Source: a virus
Taxonomy: Duplodnaviria; Heunggongvirae; Uroviricota; Caudoviricetes
DNA length: 64,000 nucleotides
Strand: one strand, 5' to 3'
Virus record (IMG/VR): IMGVR_UViG_3300018475_000004
This document shows, one piece after another, positions 20,401 through 37,570 of the stretch (within the stretch, counting starts at the first letter, position 1; each line of letters starts with the position of its first letter). The notes below the pieces were generated by a model. That model did not search any database, was not told the origin of the DNA, and saw only the letters and a list, made by a program, of their open reading frames with translations. The translations under genes and the position numbers were made by a program.

Positions 20401-20427
20401 GGCTCCTTCGGGAGCCATTTTTCTTTT
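20401..20427 (+). terminator. Terminator (ggctcc ttcg ggagcc plus T-run)
   Basis: Seen in sequence. Confidence 0.7.
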
Positions 20428-20511
20428 ATCTGCTCCGGCCGCTGACACTGAGACAACCGACACCCCAAATCTAAAAGCGATTTAGAAATTTTCTAACCAA
20501 AAACCTTCTTT

Positions 20512-20540
20512 TTGATTTTTATAAAAAAATATGATATAAT
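20512..20540 (+). promoter_or_regulatory. Conserved cassette promoter
   Basis: ttgatttttataaaaaaatatgatataat. Confidence 0.7.
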
Positions 20541-20579
20541 ATATATACAAAGGTAAGAAAAGAAAGGAATTGATAAAAA

Positions 20580-21775: not shown

Positions 21776-21778
21776 TGT

Positions 21779-23242
21779 ATGTCTTACTGTGGATACATCA
21801 CCAATCTAATGAATGTGCGTGAGCACGGCAACGCAGATAATCTGGTTCTAGCAACCTGCTTTGAGAACACCGTCTGTGTTGCAAAGGATAAGTATTTTGA
21901 AGGACAGCTGGGTGTTTACTTCCCCGTAGACGGTCAGTTGTCTATGGAGTTCTGTGAAAAGAACGGCTTGCTGGCAGTCTATGATGAGTTCGGCAAGAAT
22001 ATCTCCGGCGGATACCTAGACCCCGCCAAGCGCAATGTGCGCGCAATCAAGCTTCGCGGTGAGCAGTCCGATGGTCTGTTCCTGCCTATCGAGTGTCTGG
22101 CTTACACCGGCGCTAAGCTGGATGAACTGACTCCTGGCACTCCTATCACCGTGCTAAACGGTCATGAAATCTGTCAGAAATATATCCCTCGTGGCAAGAA
22201 TAAGGGTAATGGTGTGAAGCGTCACGCTGGCCAGAAGCTAAAGCGTAAGAATATGGCACCTACTTTCTTCGAACACAAGGATACTGAGCAGTTGGTTTAC
22301 CATCTGAGCGAATTCAAGCCCGGTGACTACATCGAAATCACCCGTAAGCTACATGGCACTTCTGGCCGTACTGCATTTGTCCAGTCTTTTGATGGACATT
22401 CTTATACTACCAATAACATTTTCCACAAGTTCTTGGGTAAGATTCTGCCTGCGGCAAAGGCTCAGAAGTTTGCGGAAAAGCACTGCACTCCTGTGTTTGA
22501 TTACGACATCGTAACCGGCACTCGTCGTACTATCCTGGATAGCTTCGATGGTGGTTTCTACGGCTCTAATGAGTTCCGTAAGCAGTACCATGACTTCTTC
22601 AAGGGTAAGCTGTGGAAGGGTGAAACTATCTACTACGAAATCGTTGGCTTTACTCATGATGGTACTCCTATCATGAGCACCTGCTCCAATGAGAAGTTGA
22701 AGGATAAGGCTTTCGTAAAGCAGTATGGTAAGGTCACTACCTTCTCTTACGGCTGCGATCCAAAGGGAGTTGCGGTTGCTGGAGTTGCCGATCCTTCTAA
22801 CCCCGATACCGCATTCAGCGTGTCCAAGCCTCAGAGCGATATCTACGTATACCGTATGACCATGACCAACGAAGATGGCCAGGTTGTGGAGTACACTCCC
22901 GACTTTATGCGTTACCGTTGTATGTACATGGGCGTCAAGACTGTGCCTGTCCACTGGGCCGGTTTTATCCCCGACGAGGAAGTTTTCACCGGAACTTCTT
23001 GCGAGCTGACTGACGCAGGCCAGTTCGTACTGGAAAAGGCTGAACAGTTCTTCGATGGTCCCGAGCCTATCGACCCCACTCATATCCGTGAGGGTGTCGT
23101 AGTTCGTGTAATCAATCGTCCTACTTTTACTGCTTATAAGCATAAGAACTTCAATTTCAAGGTTTTGGAAGGCATTATCAAAGACACTGCCGAAGCACCT
23201 GATATGGAAGAGGCTGATGGCTTAGATGAAGCAGGCGAGTAA
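21779..23242 (+). CDS. ATP-dependent RNA ligase, Rnl2/Rnl5-like (N-terminal domain plus nucleotidyltransferase with a K-x-H-G motif)
   Basis: 'ITRKLHGTS' fits ligase motif I (KxHGxN). 'ETIYYEIVG' fits an EG(Y/F)V-like motif IV. A roughly 190-aa N-terminal extension resembles the DraRnl/NgrRnl architecture. Confidence 0.5.
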   Translation: MSYCGYITNLMNVREHGNADNLVLATCFENTVCVAKDKYFEGQLGVYFPVDGQLSMEFCEKNGLLAVYDEFGKNISGGYLDPAKRNVRAIKLRGEQSDGLFLPIECLAYTGAKLDELTPGTPITVLNGHEICQKYIPRGKNKGNGVKRHAGQKLKRKNMAPTFFEHKDTEQLVYHLSEFKPGDYIEITRKLHGTSGRTAFVQSFDGHSYTTNNIFHKFLGKILPAAKAQKFAEKHCTPVFDYDIVTGTRRTILDSFDGGFYGSNEFRKQYHDFFKGKLWKGETIYYEIVGFTHDGTPIMSTCSNEKLKDKAFVKQYGKVTTFSYGCDPKGVAVAGVADPSNPDTAFSVSKPQSDIYVYRMTMTNEDGQVVEYTPDFMRYRCMYMGVKTVPVHWAGFIPDEEVFTGTSCELTDAGQFVLEKAEQFFDGPEPIDPTHIREGVVVRVINRPTFTAYKHKNFNFKVLEGIIKDTAEAPDMEEADGLDEAGE

Positions 23243-23322
23243 TCCAGCACTGGCGGTCGCTGCCTGGGCGGCCGCCCATCCCCTCCCCACAGGCACAGTA
23301 CCAAGAGGAAGAGTGAAGAAAA

Positions 23323-23523
23323 ATGAATCTACTACAATCCCCCGAGTATATGGTTTTCGACCTGATGGAGGAGTATGCCACCTATCTATACAACTACCCG
23401 AAATTCATCGTGCCAAAAGGCTCTATATATGTATTTCGGATTCGCCAATTAGATGCTGTGTGGATAAAGGTCGGAGACGGCGAAAATGCTCTAATTGATT
23501 TACCCCATATCGTTGCTCAGTAA
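23323..23523 (+). CDS. Hypothetical protein (66 aa)
   Basis: RBS agaggaag; TAA stop. Confidence 0.4.
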   Translation: MNLLQSPEYMVFDLMEEYATYLYNYPKFIVPKGSIYVFRIRQLDAVWIKVGDGENALIDLPHIVAQ

Positions 23524-23535
23524 GGAGGTAGCACA

Positions 23536-24192
23536 ATGGCTAACGTTGAAAAAATGTATACCTATCTCAGAGGTTATCTAATCGGCGCAAATATGAAGCA
23601 GTCCATCACCGCTTTGCAGTTCGCCCGTGAACATCACAGTGGGCAGACTCGCAAAGATGGAACGCCTTATATTGTTCATCCCCTGTCAATGGCCTGCTAT
23701 GCCGTGGCTCTTGGCTTGCGCGATGATAATATCATTGCTACCATCCTACTTCATGATACCGTAGAAGATTGCGGTGTGCGGCCCGAGTATCTGCCGGTAA
23801 ACGATACTGTTAAGCGTGCGGTTCAGTATATGACTATCACTAAGTTCGATACTGACTTAGATAAAATTGAAACAAAATGCCGTTATTTCAATGAACTCCT
23901 TGACTGCCGGGAAGCTTTGATTTGTAAGGCTCTTGACAGATACAACAACCTAGGCGATATGCCCATATCCTTTACCAAAGATGCCATGGGTAAAAATGTC
24001 GCAGAAACAGAGGTTCTGTTGCTCCCCGTATTGAAACGGGCAAAGGAGAGATATGCTGACTTGGCGGACATTTTATTTATTCTCCGCACGAATATTAGCA
24101 CTCTCAATGAGGCTATCAAAGTTCAGTGTTATGATGAATACACCCGATGGGCGTATATCTATAAGAGGGAAGATAAGAATGAACATTCTTAA
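23536..24192 (+). CDS. HD-domain (p)ppGpp hydrolase-like protein (RelA/SpoT hydrolase domain; small alarmone hydrolase family)
   Basis: 'HSGQTRKDGTPYIVHPLSMA...ATILLHDTVEDCGV' is the canonical SpoT/Mesh1 HD motif. Confidence 0.7.
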   Translation: MANVEKMYTYLRGYLIGANMKQSITALQFAREHHSGQTRKDGTPYIVHPLSMACYAVALGLRDDNIIATILLHDTVEDCGVRPEYLPVNDTVKRAVQYMTITKFDTDLDKIETKCRYFNELLDCREALICKALDRYNNLGDMPISFTKDAMGKNVAETEVLLLPVLKRAKERYADLADILFILRTNISTLNEAIKVQCYDEYTRWAYIYKREDKNEHS

Positions 24193-25096: not shown

Positions 25097-25101
25097 AAGA
25101 A

Positions 25102-25130
25102 AAGGCTCTCTGAACAAGAGAGCCTTTTTT
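25102..25130 (+). terminator. Terminator (aggctctct...agagagcct plus T6)
   Basis: Seen in sequence. Confidence 0.7.
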
Positions 25131-25157
25131 GATTTTTCAAAAAAAATATGTTATAAT
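25129..25157 (+). promoter_or_regulatory. Conserved cassette promoter (variant)
   Basis: ttgatttttcaaaaaaaatatgttataat. Confidence 0.65.
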
Positions 25158-25191
25158 ATATGTATAAAGAATAAGGAAGGAATTGAAAAAT

Positions 25192-25791
25192 ATGGAAAAG
25201 ATTAAGGTAGTCATTGTCGTTGATATGCAGAGGGACTTTATCGATGGCGCACTGGGTACTCCCGAAGCCCAGGCTATCGTTCCTCTGGTTGCGGAAACCA
25301 TTCATCAACTTGCTGATCCCAATACCGCTATCATCTTCACCAAGGATACTCATACCGATGACTATATGAATACTCTGGAAGGTAAGAACCTGCCCGTTCC
25401 TCATTGCATCGAAGGCACCGCTGGCTATGGCATCGTCGATGAAGTCTTTGAAGCCTGGATTCATCATGCCCAGGGCGAAAATCGCTATATGTCCGGTTAT
25501 GATGCATATCCCGTTTATGACGAGAACCCCATCCGCGTCAAGAAGCCTACTTTTGGCTCTGTTGAACTGCAGAATATTCTGTATGATATGAATGACCGCT
25601 TTGAAATCGAGGAAATCACTCTGATGGGCGTATGCACTGGCATCTGCGTCCTGTCCAATGCAATTCTGTGTAAGGCAACTCTGCCCGAAGTTCCTGTCAA
25701 TGTCGTTGCTGACTGCTGCGCTTGCGTGACTCCTGAGTCCCACAAGACCGCCCTGGAAGCAATGAAGCTGTGCCAGATCAACATTATCTAA
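25192..25791 (+). CDS. Cysteine hydrolase of the isochorismatase family, probable nicotinamidase (PncA-like)
   Basis: 'VVDMQRDFIDGALG' and 'GVCTGICV' give a D-K-C triad arrangement. Confidence 0.6.
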   Translation: MEKIKVVIVVDMQRDFIDGALGTPEAQAIVPLVAETIHQLADPNTAIIFTKDTHTDDYMNTLEGKNLPVPHCIEGTAGYGIVDEVFEAWIHHAQGENRYMSGYDAYPVYDENPIRVKKPTFGSVELQNILYDMNDRFEIEEITLMGVCTGICVLSNAILCKATLPEVPVNVVADCCACVTPESHKTALEAMKLCQINII

Positions 25792-25803
25792 GGAGGATAG
25801 CCA

Positions 25804-26634
25804 ATGATTAGAGTAGGTAATATTTCTATTCGTAGCGGTCAGTCCATGTTCCCCGATCACTCTTTGCTTATCAAGCTCAATCCAGAAGAGATGTTTGATA
25901 ACAGAGGCGCCATCAAGGTGGAATGGCTTTATGAAGACGATAGCGAACTCTTCACTCTAATCTGCGTGAAGCGTCATATCGACCGCCACTTTGGCAACAC
26001 CGATGTTGTTCTGGATATGCCCTACATTCCCCACGCTCGCATGGATCGAGTAAAGTCTGATTCTGACGTCTTTACTCTGAAGTATTTCTGCGAGATTATT
26101 AACTCTCTGAACTTCAAGATTGTTTGGGTGCGGGACGCCCATAGCAACGTGAGCCTGGCTCTGCTTGATCGAGTAGAGGATACTGGTGTTGAGCCTTATA
26201 TTCATAAGGCTACTCTGGCTTCCAAGGCTGAAGTTCTGTTCTTCCCCGATGAGGGCGCAATGAAGCGCTACTCTGATAAGTCCCCTCTACCTTATGCTTT
26301 TGGTATGAAAAAGCGAGACTGGGCTACTGGCAAGATTTTAGGTCTAGATATTATCAATGCCGAGAACATCAAAGACAAAGATGTTCTGATTGTTGATAAT
26401 ATTTGCTCCAGAGGTGGCACTTTCTACCACTCCGCAAAGGCTTTGCTGGAAGCAGGTGCCAAGAGCGTAAGTCTGTATGTGACCCACCTGGAAGAAACTG
26501 TTACTCTTGGCGATCTGCCCGAGTCCGGTCTGATCAAGCATATCTATACCACTGAATCCATTTTCCCCCAGATGCTGATTGATGGTCCCTATGACGGTGC
26601 TGGCTGGGGCGGTTGGATTACTATATTTCACTAA
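25804..26634 (+). CDS. Ribose-phosphate pyrophosphokinase (Prs) family protein, short form; either a PRPP synthetase or an ADPR-pyrophosphokinase (Adps-like)
   Basis: 'MPYIPHARMDRV' matches Prs 'IPYFGYARQDRR'. 'VLIVDNICSRGGTFYHSAKALLEAGAKSV' matches Prs '[28 protein letters not shown]'. Confidence 0.65.
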   Translation: MIRVGNISIRSGQSMFPDHSLLIKLNPEEMFDNRGAIKVEWLYEDDSELFTLICVKRHIDRHFGNTDVVLDMPYIPHARMDRVKSDSDVFTLKYFCEIINSLNFKIVWVRDAHSNVSLALLDRVEDTGVEPYIHKATLASKAEVLFFPDEGAMKRYSDKSPLPYAFGMKKRDWATGKILGLDIINAENIKDKDVLIVDNICSRGGTFYHSAKALLEAGAKSVSLYVTHLEETVTLGDLPESGLIKHIYTTESIFPQMLIDGPYDGAGWGGWITIFH

Positions 26635-26652
26635 GAAAGGAGCATACTCCAA

Positions 26653-27161
26653 TGGATAAGTATGAAACCCTCAAAGCTGATATGACGACAGCTTTAAAAG
26701 AGGGTAATAAACTTCGTCGTCTAACTATCGCCGATATGGTAGCTTCCATTGACAAGGCTGCTACTGCCGACAAAACCCGTGTTGCAATCACTGATACACT
26801 GGTTGATGAAGTATTGACAAAGTATGTCAAGACTGTAAAAGAAATGATCGATACCTGCCCCGACGGTGAGAAGTATGCGGCCCGCAAGGCTGAATACCGC
26901 GAAAAGTTGGCTATTGTGGAGGAATATGCTCCCAAGGTCATTGACGATGTTGATGAAATCGTCAAGATGGTCAATTACTGGGGTATCTGCAATGCTGTTT
27001 CTATCACTTCTGGCAATAAGGGCGTTATCGTAAAGAATGTAATGCCTTTCTTGAAAAAGCAGGGTTGTGATATGAAGTCTGCTAAGATGGCTGTGGATAA
27101 GGCTATGGCTCAGGGCGACGTCGTTCTGGAAGCCCAGCTGAATGGAACAGGAGATAACTAA
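26653..27161 (+). CDS. GatB/YqeY-domain protein
   Basis: AAAGGAG RBS; 'YETLKADMTTALKEGNKLRRLTIADMVASI' is YqeY-like. Confidence 0.5.
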
Positions 27162-27162
27162 A

Positions 27163-27933
27163 ATGGAAAGCTTTGACGAACGCATAAAACAATTGAATGA
27201 AATGATTGCGGGAGCCAAGCGTATCGTATTTTTGACCGGAGCTGGTATCTCTACCGGCTCCGGCATTCCGGACTTCCGCAGCAATAATGGCTTATACAAT
27301 ACCAGTGAAGAAGATGAGCCAGAATATATGTTGAGCCACACCTGCCTCAAAATGGAACCTGAGCGGTTCTTCCAGTATTTACGAAATAATATGGATTTTC
27401 GCAATGCTGAACCGAACATCGCTCATAAAAAAATCTCTGAGCTGCAGCAAGCAAGAACTGTGTCTGTGGTTACTCAGAATATTGACGGACTCCATGAAAA
27501 AGCCGGTTCAAAAGTAGTTGACACAATTCATGGCACCATGGCTGACTGGTACTGCCCTGGCTGCTTATGTGAGACATTCATTCCAGAAGATGTAATGGAT
27601 GGCAACTATGATGATAAAAATGGTGTGCCGAGGTGCCCTCTATGCGGCGGCGAGTTCACTATCCGCCCCGATATCACCCTATATGGCGAAAGTTTACCGG
27701 GTCTTCAGTGGCAAATGGCAATGGCTCATGTATCTGCAGCTGACCTTATGATTATCGTTGGCACTTCTTTGGCAGTCGCTCCCGCAAATTTCTTACCTGA
27801 TTGGTTCCACTCTGATAATATCGTAATAATCAATCGTGATGAGGTCGAGCGCAAAGGTTATTTCCCCGTAAAATTGCGTTTTACCGAAGATATTTGTGAG
27901 GTCTTTGAAAGGATTGAAATTCCCAATGATTAA
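27163..27933 (+). CDS. Sir2-family NAD-dependent protein deacylase (CobB-like)
   Basis: 'VFLTGAGISTGSGIPDFRSNNGLYN'; CxxC...CxxC zinc module 'CPGC...CPLCGG'. Confidence 0.75.
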   Translation: MESFDERIKQLNEMIAGAKRIVFLTGAGISTGSGIPDFRSNNGLYNTSEEDEPEYMLSHTCLKMEPERFFQYLRNNMDFRNAEPNIAHKKISELQQARTVSVVTQNIDGLHEKAGSKVVDTIHGTMADWYCPGCLCETFIPEDVMDGNYDDKNGVPRCPLCGGEFTIRPDITLYGESLPGLQWQMAMAHVSAADLMIIVGTSLAVAPANFLPDWFHSDNIVIINRDEVERKGYFPVKLRFTEDICEVFERIEIPND

Positions 27934-28180
27934 ATTTTTACTTGCCTGTCTGGCAATGGTTTGTACCATTTTTGGCTTTGCCCTAGTCGGAGCAGCAATC
28001 TGGCTTGTAGCCTCTTTTCTCGAAGCTCTATTCCTTGTCATTCCTGCTTCTGTCGGCGTAGTTATCGCCGGAATTGTAGTCATTGGCTGGATAGGCTGGA
28101 TGATTTGGTTCGTATTCAAAGTTTGTTGGATTTTCGCAAAATCCTTATATGAGACGTTCTGCGAAACATTTATCAAGTAA
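27926..28180 (+). CDS. Small membrane protein (2 TM)
   Basis: ATG overlaps the preceding TAA; hydrophobic. Confidence 0.45.
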   Translation: MIKFLLACLAMVCTIFGFALVGAAIWLVASFLEALFLVIPASVGVVIAGIVVIGWIGWMIWFVFKVCWIFAKSLYETFCETFIK

Positions 28181-28185
28181 TATTG

Positions 28186-28216
28186 AGAGTCCCTCTGCGT
28201 TCAGAGGGACTTTTTT
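28186..28216 (+). terminator. Terminator (gagtccctctg...cagagggac plus T6)
   Basis: Seen in sequence. Confidence 0.7.
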
Positions 28217-28243
28217 GATTTTTTATAAAAAATATGATATAAT
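28215..28243 (+). promoter_or_regulatory. Conserved cassette promoter
   Basis: ttgattttttataaaaaatatgatataat. Confidence 0.7.
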
Positions 28244-28275
28244 ATATATACAAAAAGTAAGGAAGTGAAAAAAAA

Positions 28276-28542
28276 ATGAGTTTTTACTGTTATACAGGTT
28301 TCAAAGATATCAATATCCACACTCCCGAAGAAATGACTAAAATGCATACTCGTCAGCTACTGGCTGAACTGAGAAGCACCTACACCTGGGGTTGTCAGCA
28401 TTGTTGGGGGAACGAAGATTGGGATCAGTTGAACTGCTACCGTGCCCAGCTCAAGGCTGAGCTGGCGACCAGAGAACACGTCCCGAATAAGTGGGAAAGC
28501 AAAGGTCTGCGTAAGCTAAGAAAGAAGAGAGGGTATAAGTAA
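28276..28542 (+). CDS. Hypothetical protein (88 aa)
   Basis: RBS aaggaag; TAA stop. Confidence 0.4.
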   Translation: MSFYCYTGFKDINIHTPEEMTKMHTRQLLAELRSTYTWGCQHCWGNEDWDQLNCYRAQLKAELATREHVPNKWESKGLRKLRKKRGYK

Positions 28543-28748
28543 TGGAAAAAGTTGCTTATGTGTCCGTCACATACCTCTTCACAATAGAGCCTGAATTAGT
28601 CGGTCTCGAAGATGACTGCGGTAAAGAGGAATTTGAAACCGCAGTTGAAAATTATATGGAAGCGGTTACCGATTATGTAGCACATCAGGCTGATGTATTT
28701 CCCAATGACATTGAAATTTCCGTTTGCGGATTTGAGAAAGGAATTTGA
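28542..28748 (+). CDS. Hypothetical acidic protein (68 aa)
   Basis: ATG overlaps the preceding TAA. Confidence 0.4.
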   Translation: MEKVAYVSVTYLFTIEPELVGLEDDCGKEEFETAVENYMEAVTDYVAHQADVFPNDIEISVCGFEKGI

Positions 28749-28753
28749 TAACT

Positions 28754-30535
28754 ATGGATAATTACAATCCTCTTCTGCTGATTGACTTCTATAAAGCTAC
28801 TCACCATGAGCAGTATCCCAAGGGTCTGACCAAGATGGTTTCCTATTACACTCCCAGAATAAGTCGCCTGGATGATGTAGACCATATCACTTTCTTTGGT
28901 CTGCAGGCTTTCATTGACGAATATCTGATCAATGGTTTCAGAACTTGGTTCTTTGACCGTGATCTGGATGAAGTTCTGTATGAGTATAACCGTGTTTTGA
29001 CCTATACCATGGGACCCGGTTCTTATGAGGATCGTAAGATTCGTGACCTGTGGGAGTTGGGTTATCTACCCCTGGAAATTCGTGCTGTCCCCGAGGGGTC
29101 TCGCACTAAAGTTGGTGTACCTCAGATTGAGATTTCCAATACTCATCCCAATTTCGTCTGGCTGGTAAATACCATCGAAACTCTGCTGTCCTGCTCCATG
29201 TGGCATACGCAGATTGCGGCTGAAGTCGGTTATCGTTACCGCAAGGTCGTTAATACTTGGGTTGAAAAAACCTGCGACTCTTCTGTAAGTCCTTGGAAGA
29301 TGATCGGTGATTTCTCTATGCGTGGTCAGCACTCCGCTGAATCTGCTATCAAGGCTTCTGGCGCATGGCTGTTGAGCCACCATAATACTGCAACTGTTCC
29401 CGCAATCATGTGGATGGAAAAGCATTATGATTGCAACATCGAAAATGAGCCTGTCGGCTTCGGTGCTATCTCCACCGAACACTCTGTCATGTGTTCTAAC
29501 TTCGCCGTTGATGGTGATGAAATTACTCACATCAAGCGCCTGCTGAGTGAAATTTATCTACACCACAGTTTCTCCATGGTTTCCGACTCTTATGACTACG
29601 AAAATCTGGTTATGAACCTGCTTCCTCAGTGCAAAAGAGAAATTATGGCTCATGATGGTACTCTTCTGGTGCGTGGCGATTCCGGTAATCCTGTCGAAAT
29701 CCTGGCTGGTAAGCCCATTGACTGGCTGACTCCTTATGATGACGAAGAAGCTGAAAAGCTGTTTTCCGACAAGGAATTCACTAAGGACTGGATGTATGAT
29801 TTCTGCCGTGACTGCGGTGTTGAGGAAGAAACTGTCCTGTATTTCCATTTCAATGACAAGTTCTACGCTCTGAATGTCTATCCTGACTGGACTAATGAGC
29901 GTGGCGCATGGACTGATCGTAAGTATTACTACGTTGAAGACTATGCTTTTGAGTGGGAAGAAATTCAGCCTTCTCTGGAACTGCTCGGCACCGTTTGGGC
30001 ATTGGACCAGATTGTCGGTCATACTGTGAATGAAAAGGGCTATAAGGTTCTGGACCCCCATCTAAAGGCAATCTACGGCGACAGCATTCTGCCTGACTAT
30101 GCCAATGAAATTTACAAGCGTCTGGCCGCCCAGGGCTACGCTGCCAATAATGTCGTTATGGGCGCTGGTTCTATGTTCATGATGGCTCTGGTTTGTGCTG
30201 ACGATGAAGGTACTCTCCAGTTCGCTGGTAAGTGGAACGGTACCAATGCTGGTCCTTATACTCGTGATACTTTTGGCATTGCTGTAAAGGCTACTTATGC
30301 CGAAGACTGCGTTGGTAATGGTATCAATATCTTCAAGAAGCCTAAAGCTCTGGCTTGGAAAAAGAGCCAGAAGGGTTGCTGTGTTGTTGCTCTGGATGGT
30401 GAGTCCTATACCGACGAGCACGCATTTGAAGATACTCTGGGCGAAAAGAATCTGCTTCAGACTGTGTTCTATAATGGTAAATTGACCAATAGACAGAGTC
30501 TGGCTGAAATCCGCGAAAGACTGTGGGGTAAGTAA
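28754..30535 (+). CDS. Nicotinamide phosphoribosyltransferase (NAMPT/NadV family; could alternatively be a Namat-type nicotinamide ADPR transferase)
   Basis: 'MDNYNPLLLIDFYKATHHEQYPKGLTKMVSYYTPR' is the NAMPT N-terminal signature; about 590 aa. Confidence 0.8.
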   Translation: MDNYNPLLLIDFYKATHHEQYPKGLTKMVSYYTPRISRLDDVDHITFFGLQAFIDEYLINGFRTWFFDRDLDEVLYEYNRVLTYTMGPGSYEDRKIRDLWELGYLPLEIRAVPEGSRTKVGVPQIEISNTHPNFVWLVNTIETLLSCSMWHTQIAAEVGYRYRKVVNTWVEKTCDSSVSPWKMIGDFSMRGQHSAESAIKASGAWLLSHHNTATVPAIMWMEKHYDCNIENEPVGFGAISTEHSVMCSNFAVDGDEITHIKRLLSEIYLHHSFSMVSDSYDYENLVMNLLPQCKREIMAHDGTLLVRGDSGNPVEILAGKPIDWLTPYDDEEAEKLFSDKEFTKDWMYDFCRDCGVEEETVLYFHFNDKFYALNVYPDWTNERGAWTDRKYYYVEDYAFEWEEIQPSLELLGTVWALDQIVGHTVNEKGYKVLDPHLKAIYGDSILPDYANEIYKRLAAQGYAANNVVMGAGSMFMMALVCADDEGTLQFAGKWNGTNAGPYTRDTFGIAVKATYAEDCVGNGINIFKKPKALAWKKSQKGCCVVALDGESYTDEHAFEDTLGEKNLLQTVFYNGKLTNRQSLAEIRERLWGK

Positions 30536-31041
30536 TGAGTATTTACCATGTAAAAGGTAGTCTGCTTGATGCAGATGTTGACTATTACTGCCATCAGGTG
30601 AATTGCCAGGGTCGCATGGGCTCTGGCATCGCTAAGGCAATTAAAGATAAGTGGCCCGTAGTTTACAGCGAATATATCCAGAAGTATAATGATACTGAGG
30701 ATAATATTCTGCGTAACTGCGGTGGTTTTGAACATTGTCCCGAGACCAGCGAAGTGCTTTTAGGCGATATTCAACTAGTCCAGGTGGATAAAACTCATAC
30801 TGTAATCAATATGTTCGCCCAAGAGCACTATGGTTATGATGGCCGCAGATACACTTCTTATGATGGCTTCTGGAGCTGCCTCGGACATATCCGAGAATTT
30901 GTTCCAGAAGGCGCAACAATTGGCTTCCCATCCCATATTGGTTGCGGCCTGGGTGGCGGCAACTGGGAGGTCATCAAGACAATGATCGAGCAAGTCCTTG
31001 ATGAGGACTATGAAGTATATATCTACTATTTGGAGGAGTAA
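30535..31041 (+). CDS. Macro-domain protein (ADP-ribose / O-acetyl-ADP-ribose processing)
   Basis: 'VDYYCHQVNCQGRMGSGIAKAIKDKWP' and 'GCGLGGGNW'. Confidence 0.65.
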   Translation: MSIYHVKGSLLDADVDYYCHQVNCQGRMGSGIAKAIKDKWPVVYSEYIQKYNDTEDNILRNCGGFEHCPETSEVLLGDIQLVQVDKTHTVINMFAQEHYGYDGRRYTSYDGFWSCLGHIREFVPEGATIGFPSHIGCGLGGGNWEVIKTMIEQVLDEDYEVYIYYLEE

Positions 31042-31043
31042 AA

Positions 31044-31877
31044 ATGGGTAGAGCATTTGACGCTGAACTGGAAATCCAGTATATGATTACCGAAATCAAA
31101 AAGTATTTCGTGAAGAATGGTGGTAAAACCACCAAAGCTGTTATCGGCATCTCCGGTGGCAAGGATTCTACAATTGCGGCTGCCCTGTTGTGTCGCGCTT
31201 TGGGTTCTGAGAATGTCTTCGGTGTTCTGATGCCCTGTGGCGAACAGGCTGACATCGCAGATTCTTACAAAGTCGTAGAGCATCTGCATATGCCCTATAC
31301 TGTCGTCAATATTGGCTCCACCATGGATGCTTTGGTGGAAGCAATCCCCGAAGAGTATTTCGGTGGTGGCAATGATGTATTCTACACTAATACTCCTGCT
31401 CGCCTGCGCATGACTACTCTGTATGGCATCGCCGCATTGATCGGCGGTCGAGTGGTTCATACTGGCAATGCATCTGAAATGTATGTCGGCTATACTACTA
31501 AGTTTGGCGATATGGCCGGTGATTTCTCCATTTTTTACGACTTTTATGTTCGTGAAATTTTGGCTATCGGTGATGCTCTGAATCTGCCTGCTGAGCTGGT
31601 TCATAAGGCTCCTGGCGATGGCATGACCGGTAAAACCGATGAAGATAATTTCGGCTTCACTTATGAAGTCCTCGATGCTTATCTTCTGGACAATAAGACG
31701 CCTTCTTATGAAACTCTGCGACTAATTGAAGAGCGTCATGAGCGAAATGCTCATAAAATGCGTATGCTGAATATTCCCTATATTCGTGCCCGCACCAGAA
31801 AATGGGAAGGTAGTTCCAATCGACATGGAGGTTGCTTTGAAGTCCTCCATGAAGATACCCCGTTTATTGATTTCTAA
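31044..31877 (+). CDS. nadE: NH3-dependent NAD+ synthetase
   Basis: PP-loop 'GISGGKDSTIAAALL'; 'TGNASEMYVGYTTKFGD'. Confidence 0.8.
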   Translation: MGRAFDAELEIQYMITEIKKYFVKNGGKTTKAVIGISGGKDSTIAAALLCRALGSENVFGVLMPCGEQADIADSYKVVEHLHMPYTVVNIGSTMDALVEAIPEEYFGGGNDVFYTNTPARLRMTTLYGIAALIGGRVVHTGNASEMYVGYTTKFGDMAGDFSIFYDFYVREILAIGDALNLPAELVHKAPGDGMTGKTDEDNFGFTYEVLDAYLLDNKTPSYETLRLIEERHERNAHKMRMLNIPYIRARTRKWEGSSNRHGGCFEVLHEDTPFIDF

Positions 31878-31886
31878 GGAGGAAGT

Positions 31887-32330
31887 ATGATTACTGAATT
31901 TGATGGAAAATACGCTTTTCTAAGTAACTTCTATTATGCCCCTTTTACCTATGATGGAATTGAATATCCTACCAACGAACACTTCTTTCAGGCAATGAAA
32001 ACCCTCGACCAAGAGGAAAGAAAGAAGATTGCGGCCGCCGCAACTCCGGGTAAGGCTAAGCGAATGGGCCGTCAAGTTCAGTTGCGTGAGGATTGGGAAC
32101 AGGTCAAATACACTGCTATGCGCGTTGGCGTAGGGCGGAAATTTGATACGCACCCTAAACTCGCAAGTAAGTTGATTGCTACAAATGATTGCATTCTTAT
32201 TGAAGGCAACTCTTGGCATGACAATACTTGGGGTTCCTGCTTCTGTCCCAAATGTGCAGAAATTGCTGGTAAAAACTGGCTTGGTGAAATTCTTATGGAA
32301 AAGCGTAAAGAATTGATTTCCGAACTGTGA
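31887..32330 (+). CDS. NADAR-domain protein (YbiA-like; ADP-ribose / NAD-related N-glycosidase family)
   Basis: 'YAFLSNFYYAPFTYDGIEYPTNEHFFQAMK...GRQVQLREDWEQVKYTAMRVGVGRKF...LIEGNSWHDNTWG' is the NADAR/DUF1768 signature. Confidence 0.65.
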   Translation: MITEFDGKYAFLSNFYYAPFTYDGIEYPTNEHFFQAMKTLDQEERKKIAAAATPGKAKRMGRQVQLREDWEQVKYTAMRVGVGRKFDTHPKLASKLIATNDCILIEGNSWHDNTWGSCFCPKCAEIAGKNWLGEILMEKRKELISEL

Positions 32331-32333
32331 TAC

Positions 32334-32361
32334 GAGACCCCTCATTTTGAGGGGTCTTTTT
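32334..32361 (+). terminator. Terminator (gagacccctc...gaggggtct plus T5)
   Basis: Seen in sequence. Confidence 0.7.
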
Positions 32362-32388
32362 GATTTTTATAAAAAAATATGATATAAT
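32360..32388 (+). promoter_or_regulatory. Conserved cassette promoter
   Basis: ttgatttttataaaaaaatatgatataat. Confidence 0.7.
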
Positions 32389-32417
32389 ATATATACAAAG
32401 TAAAGAGAGGGGAAAAG

Positions 32418-32669
32418 ATGTGCAAGTATGCTATTTACGAGAAAAATAGATTAAAAGTCTATCGTGATGAGCGATACAGCTATGATATTGTATGTTTTTG
32501 TGACTCTCTGGAAGATGCTCAAGATATGGTCTTATCTCTAACAGAAGATTTTCTTTATAAGACTTTTTGCGAGCATTGTCAACTTTTTAGCGTAAAAGAT
32601 TCAATAACACTTATGAAAATGATTCCCAAATATGGTTGGGATAAATACACAATTAAAGAGAGGGATTGA
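32418..32669 (+). CDS. Hypothetical protein (83 aa)
   Basis: RBS gagagggg; TGA stop. Confidence 0.4.
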   Translation: MCKYAIYEKNRLKVYRDERYSYDIVCFCDSLEDAQDMVLSLTEDFLYKTFCEHCQLFSVKDSITLMKMIPKYGWDKYTIKERD

Positions 32670-32992
32670 TAAGAATGACAGTAAATATTGATGCCCCCAT
32701 CATTGTAGCTTTTACTGACAAAATTAGGGATCGTATAGTACTTGATCCGTATGTTTATTTTACCGAAGAATTTACCGGAAAAGGTCTGGTTGCGGTCTAT
32801 GGCTGTTCCAATTTGAAAGACTTTTTCAATCTTATGGAGCACCTGGTTGAGTATCCCGATGGTATGTGGTACTGGGTGCTTCATGACGGAAAATGTATCT
32901 GTTCAGGTGCCTGCGACCCCGCTGACATTGAGGGGTTTGAGGAGTACTTCGGTATCACTAGCGAACAAGCAAGAGAACTGGAAATCAAGTAA
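32666..32992 (+). CDS. Hypothetical protein (108 aa)
   Basis: ATG overlaps the preceding TGA; TAA stop. Confidence 0.4.
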   Translation: MIRMTVNIDAPIIVAFTDKIRDRIVLDPYVYFTEEFTGKGLVAVYGCSNLKDFFNLMEHLVEYPDGMWYWVLHDGKCICSGACDPADIEGFEEYFGITSEQARELEIK

Positions 32993-33002
32993 GGAGGATT
33001 AT

Positions 33003-33563
33003 ATGGTTGGAGTAATTCTGTTCCGCGCACAGCCTTTTCATAATGGTCATATGAACATGGTGAAGAAGGCTTATGAAGATTGCACCGCAAATCATTGCGA
33101 CCTGCACATTTTCGTGGGTTCCGCAGACAAGTCTGGCACCAAGCGCAATCCTCTGCCCATTGATTTTCGTCTGATGCTCCTGGAAGGTGCTTTACACGAG
33201 CAATTTTCTACCGAAGATCTGAAACACATTCATGTCTATCCCTTGGATGATATGACTGATGAAAGCGACAACAGTCACGGTTGGGGCCGATACCTTTACA
33301 TCAAGATGTTCGGCAAGACCAAGGATTCTGATATGACCATCTACTACAGTGACGATCCCCGCATCATGCTCGGTTGGTTCGCACAGGATGAAAGATGGTT
33401 ACTTCGCTTCAAATTCCTGGACCGATATGAGGGTATCAGCGCTACTCTGGTGCGGCAGGCATTCCAGATGGAGGGTGGCGACTATGCTGTAAAACAGTTA
33501 GTTCCGTCTTTTGTCTATAACTACCGAGAAGAAATTCGGCAGTATATCCAGGAGGCCAAATGA
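33003..33563 (+). CDS. Nicotinamide-nucleotide adenylyltransferase (NadM/NMNAT-like cytidylyltransferase fold)
   Basis: AAGGAGG RBS; 'FRAQPFHNGH' (HxGH motif) and '...IFVGSADKSGTKRNP'. Confidence 0.7.
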   Translation: MVGVILFRAQPFHNGHMNMVKKAYEDCTANHCDLHIFVGSADKSGTKRNPLPIDFRLMLLEGALHEQFSTEDLKHIHVYPLDDMTDESDNSHGWGRYLYIKMFGKTKDSDMTIYYSDDPRIMLGWFAQDERWLLRFKFLDRYEGISATLVRQAFQMEGGDYAVKQLVPSFVYNYREEIRQYIQEAK

Positions 33564-33793
33564 AAGAATTTGATGAACAATTCTGGTGGCACACCTGCTT
33601 ATATCGTAAATGTCCATTCTTTGATGGCTCAAAAGTTATCATGGAAGAACGAAAACTTTACTGGGCTGGCAAAGACCATCCAGAATACTATGATATAACT
33701 TACGAGGAAAAATATTTTTGTCCTGTTTTTCAGAAATACCTTTACCCAGCAAGAGATGTCTGTTTCAACGAGCGTAAAGGCCCAACCTTCTAA
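33560..33793 (+). CDS. Cys-rich hypothetical protein (77 aa)
   Basis: ATG overlaps the preceding TGA. Confidence 0.4.
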   Translation: MKEFDEQFWWHTCLYRKCPFFDGSKVIMEERKLYWAGKDHPEYYDITYEEKYFCPVFQKYLYPARDVCFNERKGPTF

Positions 33794-33870: not shown

Positions 33871-34158
33871 ATGAAACCGCTAATTAGAAAGGCGGTCAAA
33901 AAGGCATTTATCGCAATTGTGATATGTGCTATATTGTCCGCCTTACTCACAGGACTCGCCCCAATCCTGATGAATGAAGTCGCAATGGGGCAGCTAGAAA
34001 ATGACAACTTCGGTTTTGTAGCGATGGAAACCGCAAGTCATGTCCAGAATATGGTCGCAAGTGGAGAAGTGCTGGTTGTTCTTATTTGCGGCGCATCCAT
34101 CGCAGTAGATTTCGTAAAATATTTCAACGATAGAAAGGAAAATATTACAAATGAATAA
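33871..34158 (+). CDS. Small membrane protein (95 aa)
   Basis: RBS aaaggagaaag; hydrophobic. Confidence 0.45.
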   Translation: MKPLIRKAVKKAFIAIVICAILSALLTGLAPILMNEVAMGQLENDNFGFVAMETASHVQNMVASGEVLVVLICGASIAVDFVKYFNDRKENITNE

Positions 34159-35095
34159 GGTAAAGAAGTTGGTTCTGCTCGTCCTGATGCTGGTCCTGTG
34201 TTTGAGCCTGGCTGGTTGTCGAAAGCCCTATGACAAGCCTGAGTTCGCCAAGATTTCTCCCTCGCAGACCGGTTTCCTGATCCCTCTGGTTGGTGATTCC
34301 AGTTCTCAGTCCGCCTTTGCTTCTGAAGAGCTGCTGGCTGAGCACAAGGTTGCCACTAAAGAAGTCCAGATTCCTCACCGCTGGGTCCAGACGGGCCGCA
34401 TGAGCTGGACTGGTGAATGGAAGCCTTCCGCAGAACTGATTGTCGTTGAGCGTAAGCCTGTATCTCGCTCTTGGGATTCCGGCGACGACACTGCTTCTTC
34501 TTCTAACCGCGCCATCTTTGGCGGTAGTTCTGATAACATCGGCATCTATGTCGGTATGAACTGTACTACCATGATCGAGGAAGCTGATGCCGTAAAGTTC
34601 CTGTATCGCTACAATAACACTCCTCTGGAGCAGATTATTGACAACGACATTAAGAAGCTGGTTGAAGACCGTTTCAACATTGAAACTTCTAAGTACACTT
34701 CTACTGAGCTGGGCGCCAACAAGGGCAAGATTATGGAAGCTGTCAAGGAATATGTAATTCCTTACTTCAAGGAATACGGCATTACCATTACTGTCCTGGG
34801 TATCAAGGAAGACATTTCCTATGAGAACCCCGAAATCCAGAGGGCAATCGATGCCAAGTTTGCGTCCGAGCAGGAACTGGTAATTCAGCAGAATAAGAAT
34901 GAAGCTAATATCGCTAAGGCTGAAGCCGAAGCTGAGGCTATGATTATGTTGGCTGAGGCCCAGGCTGAAGCTAACAGATTACTGGCTGAATCTCTGACTG
35001 GTAATCTGCTCGAAAAGATGTACTACGAAAAGTGGGACGGTAAGTTGCCTACCATCTATGGTGGCGATAATACCCCCGTCATTCAGATGCCCTAA
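34151..35095 (+). CDS. SPFH/band-7 domain lipoprotein (prohibitin/HflKC-like)
   Basis: Lipobox 'SLAGC'; SPFH core; C-terminal 'NIAKAEAEAEAMIMLAEAQAEANRLLAESL' helix. Confidence 0.6.
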   Translation: MNKVKKLVLLVLMLVLCLSLAGCRKPYDKPEFAKISPSQTGFLIPLVGDSSSQSAFASEELLAEHKVATKEVQIPHRWVQTGRMSWTGEWKPSAELIVVERKPVSRSWDSGDDTASSSNRAIFGGSSDNIGIYVGMNCTTMIEEADAVKFLYRYNNTPLEQIIDNDIKKLVEDRFNIETSKYTSTELGANKGKIMEAVKEYVIPYFKEYGITITVLGIKEDISYENPEIQRAIDAKFASEQELVIQQNKNEANIAKAEAEAEAMIMLAEAQAEANRLLAESLTGNLLEKMYYEKWDGKLPTIYGGDNTPVIQMP

Positions 35096-35180: not shown

Positions 35181-35366
35181 GTGATAAATATGTATGCAGT
35201 AAAAGGCTTTATATTTACAGAAAAGGATAATGTAATTCACAGAATTCCTTTGCCGAATGGCCTTCTCGCAAAAGATCATGACGAGGCCCATGAAACATTT
35301 GCGGCAATGGGAATTACGAATTATATGTTTACACTTATTCCAGTAGTAATAAAGGAGGGAGAATAA
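35181..35366 (+). CDS. Hypothetical protein (61 aa)
   Basis: Small ORF; TAA stop. Confidence 0.35.
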   Translation: MINMYAVKGFIFTEKDNVIHRIPLPNGLLAKDHDEAHETFAAMGITNYMFTLIPVVIKEGE

Positions 35367-36094
35367 TGGCTACATATGCGCTGGGCGACCTGCATGGGCA
35401 TTTAGAAGTGTTTCGTAAGATTCAAGCATTTTTAAAGCCCGATGATAAGGTCTATTTTCTGGGCGATGCGTGCGACCGCGGCCTGCAGTCCTATGAATGT
35501 ATCAAGGCAGTTGCGGCAGACCCTCGATTTGTTTACATTAAGGGCAACCATGAAGATATGCTCGTAAAGGCCATCAAAGATTATCTCGATGATGGTTTCA
35601 TGTGGGATTATCACTCTTATTCTCTTTCTTCTCACAATGGTGGACGACCTACAATGGAAGCTTGGGAGCGGGACCCTGACCGCATGAAGTGGTATGAGTA
35701 TCTGCGTGACCTGCCTACCCATGTAGAGTATACTAATGCTCTTGGAATGAGAATTCTGCTGAGTCATGCGGGTTATACTCCTTATTGGAGTGATCCTGAA
35801 GCTGACGAAGATAAAGAGCTTATCATTCCCGATGATGAGCATCTTATCTGGAACAGAGATGACTATTTCGATCCCTGGGACCCACTGAACGAGGGTGGTT
35901 ATGATGACTTCCTTGTTGTTCATGGTCATACTCCTGTATGTTATATCAGTGAAGATTTGTATATCGATTGGGAGTCCGGTCCCATCTGGTATGCGGACGG
36001 CCATAAAGTGTGCATTGACACTGGTGGATTCTTTATGGGTGAGTTCTGTCTTTTGGATTTGAACACCTACCAAAGTTATTCATTTTTCAGTTAA
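35366..36094 (+). CDS. Ser/Thr protein phosphatase (PPP family, lambda-phosphatase-like)
   Basis: 'GDLHGH', 'LGDACDRG', 'GNHE'. Confidence 0.7.
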   Translation: MATYALGDLHGHLEVFRKIQAFLKPDDKVYFLGDACDRGLQSYECIKAVAADPRFVYIKGNHEDMLVKAIKDYLDDGFMWDYHSYSLSSHNGGRPTMEAWERDPDRMKWYEYLRDLPTHVEYTNALGMRILLSHAGYTPYWSDPEADEDKELIIPDDEHLIWNRDDYFDPWDPLNEGGYDDFLVVHGHTPVCYISEDLYIDWESGPIWYADGHKVCIDTGGFFMGEFCLLDLNTYQSYSFFS

Positions 36095-36105
36095 ATAGAT
36101 CTTAA

Positions 36106-36134
36106 TTGATTTTTATAAAAAAATATGATATAAT
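36106..36134 (+). promoter_or_regulatory. Conserved cassette promoter
   Basis: ttgatttttataaaaaaatatgatataat. Confidence 0.7.
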
Positions 36135-36164
36135 ATATGTGTAAGGTAAAGAAAGGAATATGAA

Positions 36165-36422
36165 ATGGCAAAGCAGAAAGCATATAACGAACACAGCTTT
36201 TATTGTATCAGCTGTGGCAACAAGGGTATTCCTCTGATGCGCCTCAAAGGTCATCAACATGGACGGATGCATCGCAAGAAGCTCTACTGTCCGACCTGTC
36301 GTATGGAAATCAATCATGTCGAATGTAAGACAATGGAAGATGTAGAAGAATTTCGTTATAATTTTGAGAATGGGGTGTATAAGGATGAAGCGGAAACGTC
36401 TATTTGTCATGTCCGGTCCTAG
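36165..36422 (+). CDS. Zinc-ribbon protein (two CxxC pairs); ends at a TAG, and if TAG is read through it extends to TGA at about 36504
   Basis: RBS aaagaaagg; 'CISCG...CPTC'. Confidence 0.45.
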   Translation: MAKQKAYNEHSFYCISCGNKGIPLMRLKGHQHGRMHRKKLYCPTCRMEINHVECKTMEDVEEFRYNFENGVYKDEAETSICHVRS

Positions 36423-36915
36423 TGGATGCGGCAAGAGCTCCTGGATTCAGAAGCAGATTGCGATTCACGGTGGCAACTGGATTTCCAGAGATTTGATTCG
36501 TCTTTCTCTGGTTGAAGAGAATGAAAGTTATTTCTCTCACGAAGATCAGGTTCTGCGGGAGTTTTATAAGGAAATCAACAACAAGTTGAGTTCTGACTAC
36601 TTCCATTCTGATGTTTATGTTGATGCCACCCACTTGACACCTAAAGCTCGAAGAGAGCTGTTCCGCAATATCAATCTGAAGAACGCTGCTGAAGTAATTG
36701 GTGTTTCTTTTGAAATTCCTACTGATGTGGCGGTCGAAAGAAACAAGAACCGCGTCGGACGCGCGGACGTTCCTATGACTGTAATTCGTGATATGAATAA
36801 GCGTTTCATTGCTCCTTCTCTGTATGAGGGTTATGATATGATTATCCATATTAATGAATTTGGTGAAGAAAGAAAGGAAGTGAAAACCGATGGGAAGGAT
36901 TTTTGTGACTTCTGA
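36385..36915 (+). CDS. P-loop kinase (Walker A 'GPSGCGKSS'); possible polynucleotide 5'-kinase (Pnk-like)
   Basis: 'LFVMSGPSGCGKSSWIQK' resembles the Pnk kinase domain. It is translationally coupled to the downstream metallophosphoesterase by a 26-nt overlap. Confidence 0.45.
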   Translation: MKRKRLFVMSGPSGCGKSSWIQKQIAIHGGNWISRDLIRLSLVEENESYFSHEDQVLREFYKEINNKLSSDYFHSDVYVDATHLTPKARRELFRNINLKNAAEVIGVSFEIPTDVAVERNKNRVGRADVPMTVIRDMNKRFIAPSLYEGYDMIIHINEFGEERKEVKTDGKDFCDF

Positions 36916-37570
36916 TACTCATTTCGGTCATGACCGAGAGTTTCTATGGGGTCCAAGAGGTTTCTCGAATTACATGGAGCATGATAATGAAGTTATCAGA
37001 CGATGGAATGAGGTTGTTGGTCCCGATGATACCGTATTCCATTTGGGTGATGTAATGCTCGGTGATAATTCTTATGGTATGGACTGTTTAGCAGAGCTAA
37101 ATGGTAATATTAAGATTATCCCCGGTAATCATGACACCGCAACTCGTTTGGTACTTTATAAGAAGCTCCCTCGTGTTGAAGTTCTCGGTTTGGCTGAAAT
37201 GATCAAGTATAAGAAGTATAACTTCTATTTGAGTCATCATCCTACCATTACTTCTAATCTGGAAAAGGCTCCGTATCTGCGGATGCACCTAATCAATCTG
37301 TTTGGTCATACTCATCAGCAAAACAAGTTCTATATGAGTATGCCCTATATGTTCCATGTTGGTATGGACTCCAATAATTGCACTCCGGTTCTACTAGATG
37401 ATGCAATTGAAATGATGAAGAAAGAAACCGAAATTTGTATTGAAATGCTTGGCCTCCAGGAGGAGCAGAAAAATGAATGCGACACCTGCGGCCACAACCC
37501 CCAATGCTCCGCAAGTGCAGATGGAAAGCGCTGCAAGGATTACCTTGCAGATCCGCTGCTAGGAGGTTGA
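36890..37570 (+). CDS. Calcineurin-like metallophosphoesterase; possible 2',3'-phosphatase partner of the upstream kinase
   Basis: 'VTSDTHFGHD', 'HLGDVMLGD', 'PGNHD', 'GHTH'. Confidence 0.7.
   Translation: MGRIFVTSDTHFGHDREFLWGPRGFSNYMEHDNEVIRRWNEVVGPDDTVFHLGDVMLGDNSYGMDCLAELNGNIKIIPGNHDTATRLVLYKKLPRVEVLGLAEMIKYKKYNFYLSHHPTITSNLEKAPYLRMHLINLFGHTHQQNKFYMSMPYMFHVGMDSNNCTPVLLDDAIEMMKKETEICIEMLGLQEEQKNECDTCGHNPQCSASADGKRCKDYLADPLLGG

Follow-up and report, generated by a model that had tools for sequence, protein, structure and literature searches.

The 64,000-nucleotide stretch of DNA analyzed here (the window; IMG/VR record IMGVR_UViG_3300018475_000004) comes from a virus of the class Caudoviricetes and carries, at positions 25192–33563, an island of nine genes encoding a PncA-type nicotinamidase, a Prs-like pyrophosphokinase, a YqeY-like protein, a Sir2 deacylase, a NAMPT-family enzyme, a Macro-domain protein, the NAD synthetase NadE, a NADAR-domain protein, and a nicotinamide mononucleotide (NMN) adenylyltransferase (NMNAT). 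The question raised by this island is by which route such a set of enzymes would provide nicotinamide adenine dinucleotide (NAD+). Open reading frame (ORF) calls and searches with Pfam, NCBIfam, and PHROG located all nine genes on the + strand and supported each domain identity with profile matches, as a first-pass annotation made from the sequence alone had proposed for this ~8-kb region. The families and gene content also agree with its general reading, namely NAD+ reconstitution directed against NAD+ depletion. We propose, with moderate confidence, that the island is an extended module of the NAD+ reconstitution pathway 1 (NARP1) type, the core of which would run via a deamidated branch.

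The Namat and Adps homologs and their active sites

The NAMPT-family enzyme (596 amino acids, 28745–30535; phrog_448, 1e-138) belongs to the Namat clade. Both by sequence (351 bits) and by the fold of its AlphaFold model (TM-score 0.90), it is most similar to the crystal structures of Namat from SPbetaL1 (SpβL1; 9W5W/9W5X), with weaker sequence matches to H. ducreyi NadV (259 bits) and to human and other mammalian NAMPT (~136 bits). Its identity to KVP40 NadV is only 28%, and a neighbor-joining tree rooted on KVP40 places it among the Namats, apart from the NadV proteins of KVP40 and KP15. Because of these matches, the low identity to KVP40 NadV, and the placement in the tree, the locus resembles NARP1 and not NARP2. 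The first-pass annotation had paired the NAMPT-family gene with NMNAT as NARP2, an assignment that does not hold now that the sole NAMPT-family gene falls in the Namat clade.

The partner expected of a Namat is encoded at 25804–26634. The Prs-like protein matches phrog_619 (2e-68), yet does not reach the cutoff set for bacterial Prs models in NCBIfam, and it is 30–44% identical to Adps, a PRPS-like ADP-ribose pyrophosphokinase, from SpβL1, an ICP1-like phage, and FelixO1. The Adps structure paper describes the residues that bind ADP-ribose (ADPR) and the donor ATP, including a Cys and a Phe of a remodelled PP loop, and the Adps-type residues F18, R87, H121, D161, K185, D212, C215, and F221 (ICP1 numbering) are present in the window protein. 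These active-site residues are kept in loci of both of the Namat pocket types described below. Aligned with SpβL1, the window Adps is 34% identical and the Namat 44% (36% and 41% by tblastn). As in the NARP1 systems of SpβL1, Bas63, and ICP1, the two homologous genes share a strand and an island, and family profiles, residues, and clade placement thus agree with the earlier suggestion that the Prs-like and NAMPT-like pair resembles Adps plus Namat.

The window Namat departs from its canonical homologs in the substrate pocket. According to the SpβL1 structure paper, Asp215 and Ala242 line the nicotinamide pocket and a hydrogen bond links Asp215 to the amide; the window protein has Ala216 in place of Asp215 and Ser243 in place of Ala242, a combination referred to here as A/S, as opposed to the canonical D/A. 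Across the A/S sequences sampled, of which the tree set has 134 unique ones, the residue at the position of Asp215 is always Ala or Ser. SpβL1 Asp215 is equivalent to human NAMPT Asp219, a residue fundamental to substrate specificity, of which the D219S replacement switches substrate affinity and the D219A replacement abolishes activity. Apart from the two pocket positions, the residues of the catalytic core are unchanged relative to canonical Namat. The window protein keeps both the catalytic His246 and the stacking Arg41 of the clamp loop (Arg40 in SpβL1); this Arg is retained in nearly all A/S sequences, and phAss-1 has Lys, like several canonical Namats.

A second difference concerns the clamp that holds the adenine. 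The canonical clamp-helix motif GS-X-Φ-X-Φ-X-Φ-TRD is not found in the window, which reads GSMFMMALVCADDEGTLQFAGKWNGTNAGPYTRD, that is, a GSxTYQYxTRD motif split by a 27-residue insertion (residues 478–505). The insertion is modelled by AlphaFold, in a prediction that shows no ligands, at a low confidence (predicted local distance difference test, pLDDT, of ~48–62). Elsewhere in the subfamily the A/S pocket occurs together with the canonical adenine clamp, GS/AYTYQYxTRD, namely in phAss-1 and in chromosomal operons of Clostridium, which argues that ADP-ribose pyrophosphate (ADPR-PP) is still the donor. Another insertion, of 88 amino acids (~325–413), is predicted with pLDDT > 90 to form a subdomain of helices and a β-hairpin, and the same insertion is present in the long-form Namats of Tsamsa-like Bacillus phages and FelixO1.

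Linkage of the pocket type with PncA and NadE

The nicotinamidase (25192–25791; Pfam isochorismatase, 5e-23) has its best matches in the PDB to 1ILW/1IM5 and 3PL1, which are true PncA enzymes. Its catalytic Asp and Cys and its metal-ligand Asp, His, and His align to PncA from P. horikoshii (1IM5) and M. tuberculosis, and the Lys of the triad, outside the 1IM5 alignment blocks, was placed by reading the sequence (KKPTF). The NH3-dependent NAD synthetase NadE (31044–31877; 277 amino acids) scores 154 bits with TIGR00552 against a cutoff of 64 and has no glutaminase domain; its best matches in the PDB are 2E18, 3P52, and 3FIU, and it is of the short type, to which 3FIU, from F. tularensis, also belongs. 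The NadE of F. tularensis prefers nicotinic acid mononucleotide (NaMN) as its substrate. NadE is rare in phages, being encoded in 51 of 50,697 phage records, and the nearest of these are human-gut sequences.

To relate these two genes to the pocket type, Namat homologs and their flanks were drawn from an annotated phage collection, IMG/VR contigs, and bacterial genomes, and the pocket state and neighboring genes were scored with hidden Markov models (HMMs) built from the island proteins. Loci flanked on either side by 3 kb or more were collapsed at 90% identity, resulting in 95 non-redundant loci from phages and Clostridia. The A/S pocket is found in 70 of these clusters, 63 of which contain both PncA and NadE and seven of which contain one of the two, so that none has neither (PncA, 68/70; NadE, 65/70). 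The D/A pocket is found in the other 25 clusters, and all 25 have neither PncA nor NadE. Adps, by comparison, is present in 68 of the A/S and in all 25 of the D/A clusters. The difference in linkage between the pocket types gives a Fisher p-value of 6e-17, which ignores phylogeny. PncA and NadE had been read as extras in the first-pass annotation; both are indeed present, but as conserved core partners of an altered-pocket Namat subfamily. PncA, Adps, Namat, and NadE are the conserved core of the island, and Macro, NMNAT, Sir2, YqeY, and NADAR are variable accessories.

The same core occurs in bacterial chromosomes. In Clostridium isolates, an operon of Adps, PncA, Namat (A/S, with the canonical clamp), and NadE adjoins a homolog of NrtR with Nudix and winged-helix domains (5722–10254 of locus L176 from Clostridium sp. 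OS1-26; 6637–11120 of locus L158 from C. sartagoforme), and it resembles a housekeeping form of the module in bacteria. NrtR is an ADP-ribose-responsive regulator of NAD salvage, and C. acetobutylicum carries the operon nrtR-pncA-pncB-nadD-nadE (Rodionov 2008). Since the outer genes are the same in both operons, Adps and Namat(A/S) occupy the place of PncB and NadD. The phage island resembles the NrtR salvage operons (prs-nadV of gamma-proteobacteria and the C. acetobutylicum operon; Rodionov 2008) in that PncA and NadE would bracket a two-step conversion of nicotinate to nicotinic acid adenine dinucleotide (NaAD, or deamido-NAD), as in its chromosomal Clostridium relatives. It differs from them in that Adps and the A/S Namat replace PncB and NadD and that the phage copy lacks NrtR and has phage promoters.

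In the pathway suggested by these comparisons, PncA would convert nicotinamide to nicotinate and Adps would form ADPR-PP from ADPR and ATP. The A/S Namat, its amide-recognizing Asp replaced by Ala and a Ser gained across the pocket, would then join nicotinate and ADPR-PP to yield NaAD, from which NadE would make NAD+. The inputs, nicotinamide and ADPR, would be the products of defense NADases. The substrate specificities of all of the enzymes, and the anti-defense role, are predictions made from sequence. Somewhat short of even confidence, and hence only tentatively, we further suggest that the A/S Namat is a nicotinate ADP-ribosyltransferase, producing NaAD from ADPR-PP and nicotinate, and that together with PncA, Adps, and NadE it constitutes a fourth, deamidated pathway that is widespread in gut Clostridia (under NrtR) and their phages, to which an NMNAT branch is added here in a hybrid resembling NARP1 and NARP2, a kind absent from earlier surveys.

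The island could instead be a canonical NARP1, making NAD+ from nicotinamide and ADPR-PP, if the A/S substitutions were neutral and PncA and NadE boosted the Preiss-Handler flux of the host in parallel. The catalytic core outside of the two pocket positions is unchanged, as this would predict, and Ser243 could form a hydrogen bond to an amide just as to a carboxylate. However, human NAMPT no longer acts on nicotinamide once the Asp is lost, Namat and a nicotinamidase would be in competition for one substrate, and neutral substitutions would make the all-or-none linkage to PncA and NadE difficult to account for; we therefore consider this explanation quite improbable.

A different donor would leave the use of nicotinate intact. 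In Preiss-Handler salvage fed by phosphoribosyl pyrophosphate (PRPP), the Prs-like protein would supply PRPP, the A/S enzyme would make NaMN, NMNAT or the host NadD would convert NaMN to NaAD, and NadE would complete the synthesis; in a Francisella-style variant, NadE would amidate NaMN to NMN, from which the NadM-type NMNAT would form NAD+. Nicotinate is used in this scheme too, so that it accounts just as well for the pocket switch and the PncA/NadE linkage, and the NadE of the island is of the short type, like F. tularensis 3FIU. Although unlikely in our estimation, PRPP-fed salvage stays a serious rival because the clamp is broken in the window lineage, an otherwise invariant Asp of Adps is Asn (see below), clamp mutants of SpβL1 Namat retain PRPP-dependent activity, and an NMNAT is encoded in the window. 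What speaks for the other donor is that the Prs-like protein belongs to the Adps family and has Adps-type PP-loop residues, that the Adps of SpβL1 does not act like a Prs, and that NMNAT is missing near 68 of the 70 A/S clusters. We favor ADPR-PP over PRPP because Adps accompanies 68 of the 70 A/S clusters, the stacking Arg is kept, and some A/S members have the canonical clamp.

Several points weigh against the proposed deamidated, ADPR-PP-dependent route. The clamp is disrupted not only in the window but in most gut-phage relatives, and because it is interrupted by an insertion modelled at low confidence the preference for ADPR-PP may be weakened; the PRPP-dependent activity kept by the SpβL1 clamp mutants points the same way. 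Of the DD pair that binds ribose, the second Asp (D213) is Asn in the window Adps (codon AAT, 26398–26400) and Asp in all other Adps homologs examined, the closest relatives included. The Asn may reflect true variation, a weaker enzyme, or an error in the sequence, and since it replaces an invariant Asp that contacts the ribose, the window copy of Adps may be impaired. Human NAMPT D219A is inactive rather than switched in specificity, and a nicotinamidase beside a nicotinamide-using enzyme could have other rationales. Finally, the A/S sequences form essentially one clade, sister to the canonical Namats, with phAss-1 left unresolved by the neighbor-joining tree. The linkage may thus trace to one ancestral event, in which case the Fisher p-value overstates independence, and the signal is one of long-term co-retention rather than of repeated convergence. 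Several independent origins of the A/S state had been expected, an idea that was dropped in view of this tree.

Compared with NARP1, then, the island retains the fold and the catalytic core of Namat along with the stacking Arg. It differs in the Asp215-to-Ala and Ala242-to-Ser pocket, in the clamp motif broken by 27 residues, in the obligatory linkage to PncA and NadE, and in that its Adps and Namat lie in different predicted transcription units. The island is built from NARP1 and NARP1-AP protein families and departs from them in the amide-binding Asp, the clamp motif, and the two added partners. A similar arrangement is found in phAss-1 (OQ749652), in which the order is nicotinamidase, Prs-like, NAMPT-like, a 139-amino acid ORF, and NadE, and the pocket is A/S. 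Unlike the window, phAss-1 keeps the canonical clamp, belongs to another lineage (TAG-recoded), and has no Sir2, YqeY, or NMNAT nearby; the NAD module is not discussed in the phAss-1 genome paper. We found no description of a nicotinate ADP-ribosyltransferase reaction that makes NaAD. No paper was found that describes the variant or that links NARP1, Namat, or ADPR-PP to any of NadE, PncA, nicotinamidase, and NaAD, a weak absence given that few subscription journals were covered, so that a prior description may exist. The papers examined on NARP1, Namat, NARP3, and aRES do not mention PncA, NadE, or nicotinate, save for generic background on nicotinate in the NARP3 paper.

Accessory genes of the island

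The Macro-domain protein (168 amino acids, 30535–31041; phrog_335, 1e-37) is encoded directly after Namat, with a start that overlaps the Namat stop codon. It belongs to a NARP1-linked (Adpp-like) family, being homologous (same HMM family) to gp176 of Vibrio phage Ceto, which is located between Adps and Namat in that genome. The corresponding place in NARP1-AP is taken by Adpp, an ADPR-1''-phosphate phosphatase that lets NARP1 overcome the aRES defense. The island has one feature of NARP1-AP (Vibrio phage Gary; Adps-Adpp-Namat), namely that a Macro protein of this phage family is encoded directly beside Namat. It differs in that the order is Namat-Macro, that the Macro is only ~31% identical to the Ceto protein, and that by profile the Poa1p-like phosphatase is more distant from its family than TARG1 and BT1257 are (the profile matches being, in order, BT1257, TARG1, DarG, and Poa1p-like macro domains). 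The window protein has Gln at the position of the Lys in the LITK motif of TARG1 and Gly at that of the Asp in GLDR; these TARG1 residues are K84, the catalytic Lys, and D125. Phosphatase, O-acetyl-ADPR deacetylase, and glycohydrolase activities cannot be separated by sequence. The Macro protein may convert ADPR-1''-phosphate or O-acetyl-ADPR to ADPR, and either activity would feed ADPR to Adps.

In the first-pass annotation, the Macro protein was instead a DarG-type eraser of ADP-ribosylated thymidine. Its match to the DarG model, which has 338 positions, is confined to positions 2–146, the C-terminal domain of DarG is absent, and no DarT-like ORF was found within the island. Because the catalytic Lys, the Asp of GLDR, and the C-terminal domain are all missing and its family is a NARP1-linked one, a role as a DarG-like DNA glycohydrolase is unlikely, and the domain itself is what remains of that assignment. 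The annotation had combined this eraser with NADAR, acting on guanosine, to counter DarT-type ADP-ribosylation, alongside NAMPT and NMNAT as NARP2. Such a composite can draw on the presence of both an NMNAT and a NAMPT-family gene, on the fold-level likeness of the Macro to the DarG macro domain (NCBIfam, 1.7e-15; PADLOC, 1e-16), on the NADAR domain, which was confirmed (31887–32330; Pfam, 2e-31), and on the introduction of the NARP3 paper, which describes a NADAR with which T4-like phages counter DarT. We nevertheless regard it as highly improbable: the NAMPT-family enzyme lies outside the NARP2 clade, Osterman et al. report no phage with both NARP pathways, the Macro has Gln at the TARG1/DarG Lys position and belongs to a NARP1-linked family, and the NADAR protein is closer to YbiA (2B3W; 81 bits, 6e-22) than to the solved NADAR 8BAU (54 bits, 2e-13). 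NADAR genes beside phage NAD salvage genes were noted earlier by Iyer et al.

The NMNAT (33003–33563; NCBIfam PRK01153, 1e-11) is a stand-alone NMN/NaMN adenylyltransferase of the NadM or archaeal type, without a Nudix domain, and it matches 1F9A and 1EJ2 in the PDB. Its start was set to 33003 rather than 32847 because of the archaeal NMNAT matches and of a 187-amino acid ortholog in the relative L104, which is 77% identical and shares the initial MVGVILF. The enzyme may adenylate NaMN or NMN arising from a PRPP-driven side activity of Namat or from the phage DNA ligase. An NAD-dependent DNA ligase is encoded outside of the island (49994–51982, + strand; phrog_3869, 3e-159), and its consumption of NAD+ with release of NMN is a possible reason for a stand-alone NMNAT. 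Like NARP2 (NadV plus NatV of KVP40), the window combines a NAMPT-family enzyme and an NMN adenylyltransferase in one phage, but its NAMPT-family enzyme is of the other clade and has the A/S pocket (D/A in KVP40 and KP15), and its NMNAT lacks the Nudix domain.

The sirtuin (27142–27933) is a CobB-type NAD-dependent protein deacylase and hence an NAD+ consumer. It scores 245 bits against a cutoff of 221 with the equivalog model NF001752, which assigns it to the housekeeping-type deacylases rather than to the defense NADases; a defense-type SIR2 was considered and rejected, as there was no PADLOC match. The remaining accessory gene encodes a YqeY/GatB-C-like protein (26652–27161; Pfam YqeY, 1e-8). 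A YqeY-like gene recurs beside Adps and Namat in both pocket types (KoopaTroopa L003, 9943–10380; L039; L079; and the window), and no role for it was proposed in the literature examined on these pathways.

With NMNAT in only two and Sir2 in only four of the 70 A/S clusters, the complete set of nine genes is rare, in line with the unusual completeness claimed from the sequence. The island recurs with its order kept in the relatives L017, L018, and L103–L105 at 59–89% identity, so the clustering of its genes is not due to chance. Its right-hand end varies among close relatives: NADAR and NMNAT are absent from L103 (89% identical) and present in L104 and L105, together with a NadR-kinase-like AAA_28 gene. 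This gene lies between NADAR and NMNAT (14049–14579 in L104; 8554–9084 in L105), is not found in the window, and may point to a branch through nicotinamide riboside in some genomes. A megablast search of the island against the 50,697 phage records gave no match, and an exact-sequence lookup of the Namat protein returned no recorded identical sequence.

Putative transcription units and phage setting

Adps and Namat are adjacent in most relatives, and in the window they are separated by 2.1 kb on the same strand, with YqeY, Sir2, and three small ORFs between them. There are 15 copies in the window, against 0 expected by chance, of a 33-nucleotide promoter-like motif, TTGATTTTT-N3-AAAAAATATG-N-TATAATATAT. 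All copies are on the + strand, and most are located just 3' of a GC-rich hairpin; they span 6849–36138, with weaker copies at 44091 and 55267. The motif looks like one class of phage promoter driving the whole 6.8–36 kb region. Three copies, each following a hairpin terminator on the + strand (25098–25161, 28185–28247, and 32334–32392), mark the predicted starts of three transcription units, within which the genes abut or overlap. The first comprises PncA, Adps, YqeY, Sir2, and, as its last gene, a small membrane ORF (94 hydrophobic amino acids, 27896–28180). The second comprises two small ORFs 5' of Namat (88 and 68 amino acids, 28276–28748) that are kept in close relatives, followed by Namat, Macro, NadE, and NADAR, and the third comprises two further small ORFs (83 and 108 amino acids, 32418–32992) and NMNAT, followed just beyond the island by a 77-amino acid ORF (33560–33793), all on the + strand. 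Three copies of a promoter specific to the phage thus appear to drive transcription of the island. The five small ORFs interspersed among its nine genes belong to no family; none has a Pfam match, and those queried against PADLOC gave none either.

The window is phage-like, with 83 of its 90 ORFs on one strand, and encodes an RNA ligase, PhoH, topoisomerase II, DnaB, and RecJ in addition to the NAD-dependent ligase. No tRNA genes were found in it. Relatives at 82–94% identity are located on metagenomic contigs of up to 204 kb. Relatives have also been found in assemblies from Lachnospiraceae, Ruminococcus, Oscillospiraceae, and Acutalibacteraceae, as well as in human fecal viromes; a contig of 159 kb that was binned with an Acutalibacteraceae metagenome-assembled genome carries a 70%-identical copy in which the clamp insertion is the same. 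The phage is a large one, and its host, judging from these relatives, probably belongs to the gut Clostridia.

Genes resembling those for RNA and tRNA repair flank the island on both sides (13471–24192 and 35366–37570). They encode a Thg1-like protein (16527–17309), RNase T (20580–21491), an RNA ligase (21779–23242), an HD_4 domain protein (23536–24192), an AAA_33 kinase (36364–36915), and three metallophosphoesterases (at 13471, 35366, and 36890), and a sigma-70 factor is encoded in the same region (19053–19958). Two SPFH/Band_7 proteins are encoded just 3' of the island (34151–35095 and 38057–39589) and are kept in relatives. Two large ORFs, at 3932–6004 (690 amino acids) and 6923–9424 (833 amino acids), had no PHROG match. 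The GC content is 0.41–0.48 over most of the region from 6 to 40 kb (0.36 in the 12–14 kb bin) and mostly 0.33–0.40 elsewhere, so that the promoter-rich region that holds the island differs in composition from the replication module.

These surroundings bear on a further explanation, in which the island is a metabolic support module, copied from a housekeeping operon of the host, that keeps NAD+ high for the phage ligase and sirtuin. LigA and a CobB-type Sir2 are both encoded by the phage, and in Clostridium the four core genes form a chromosomal operon linked to NrtR. Its NARP1 homologs, however, are experimentally anti-defense, and the island sits among RNA-repair-like genes typical of counter-defense regions. 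Metabolic support as the explanation is distinctly unlikely, and metabolic and counter-defense roles are in any case compatible.

Depletion of NAD+ is a common outcome of antiphage defenses, among them Thoeris, DSR, SIR2-HerA, SEFIR, and aRES, and NAD+ reconstitution is the only known broad countermeasure. In present annotations, genes such as those of the island go under the names of ordinary Prs, NAMPT, or NAPRT enzymes. Should nicotinate be the substrate of the A/S Namat, NARP1 would gain a second branch, distinct in its chemistry and in the specificity of its enzyme. If true, this would explain the presence of a nicotinamidase and an NAD synthetase in phages of gut anaerobes, would provide a function for the prs/nadV-like operons of Clostridia, and would allow two residues to predict which branch a homolog uses.

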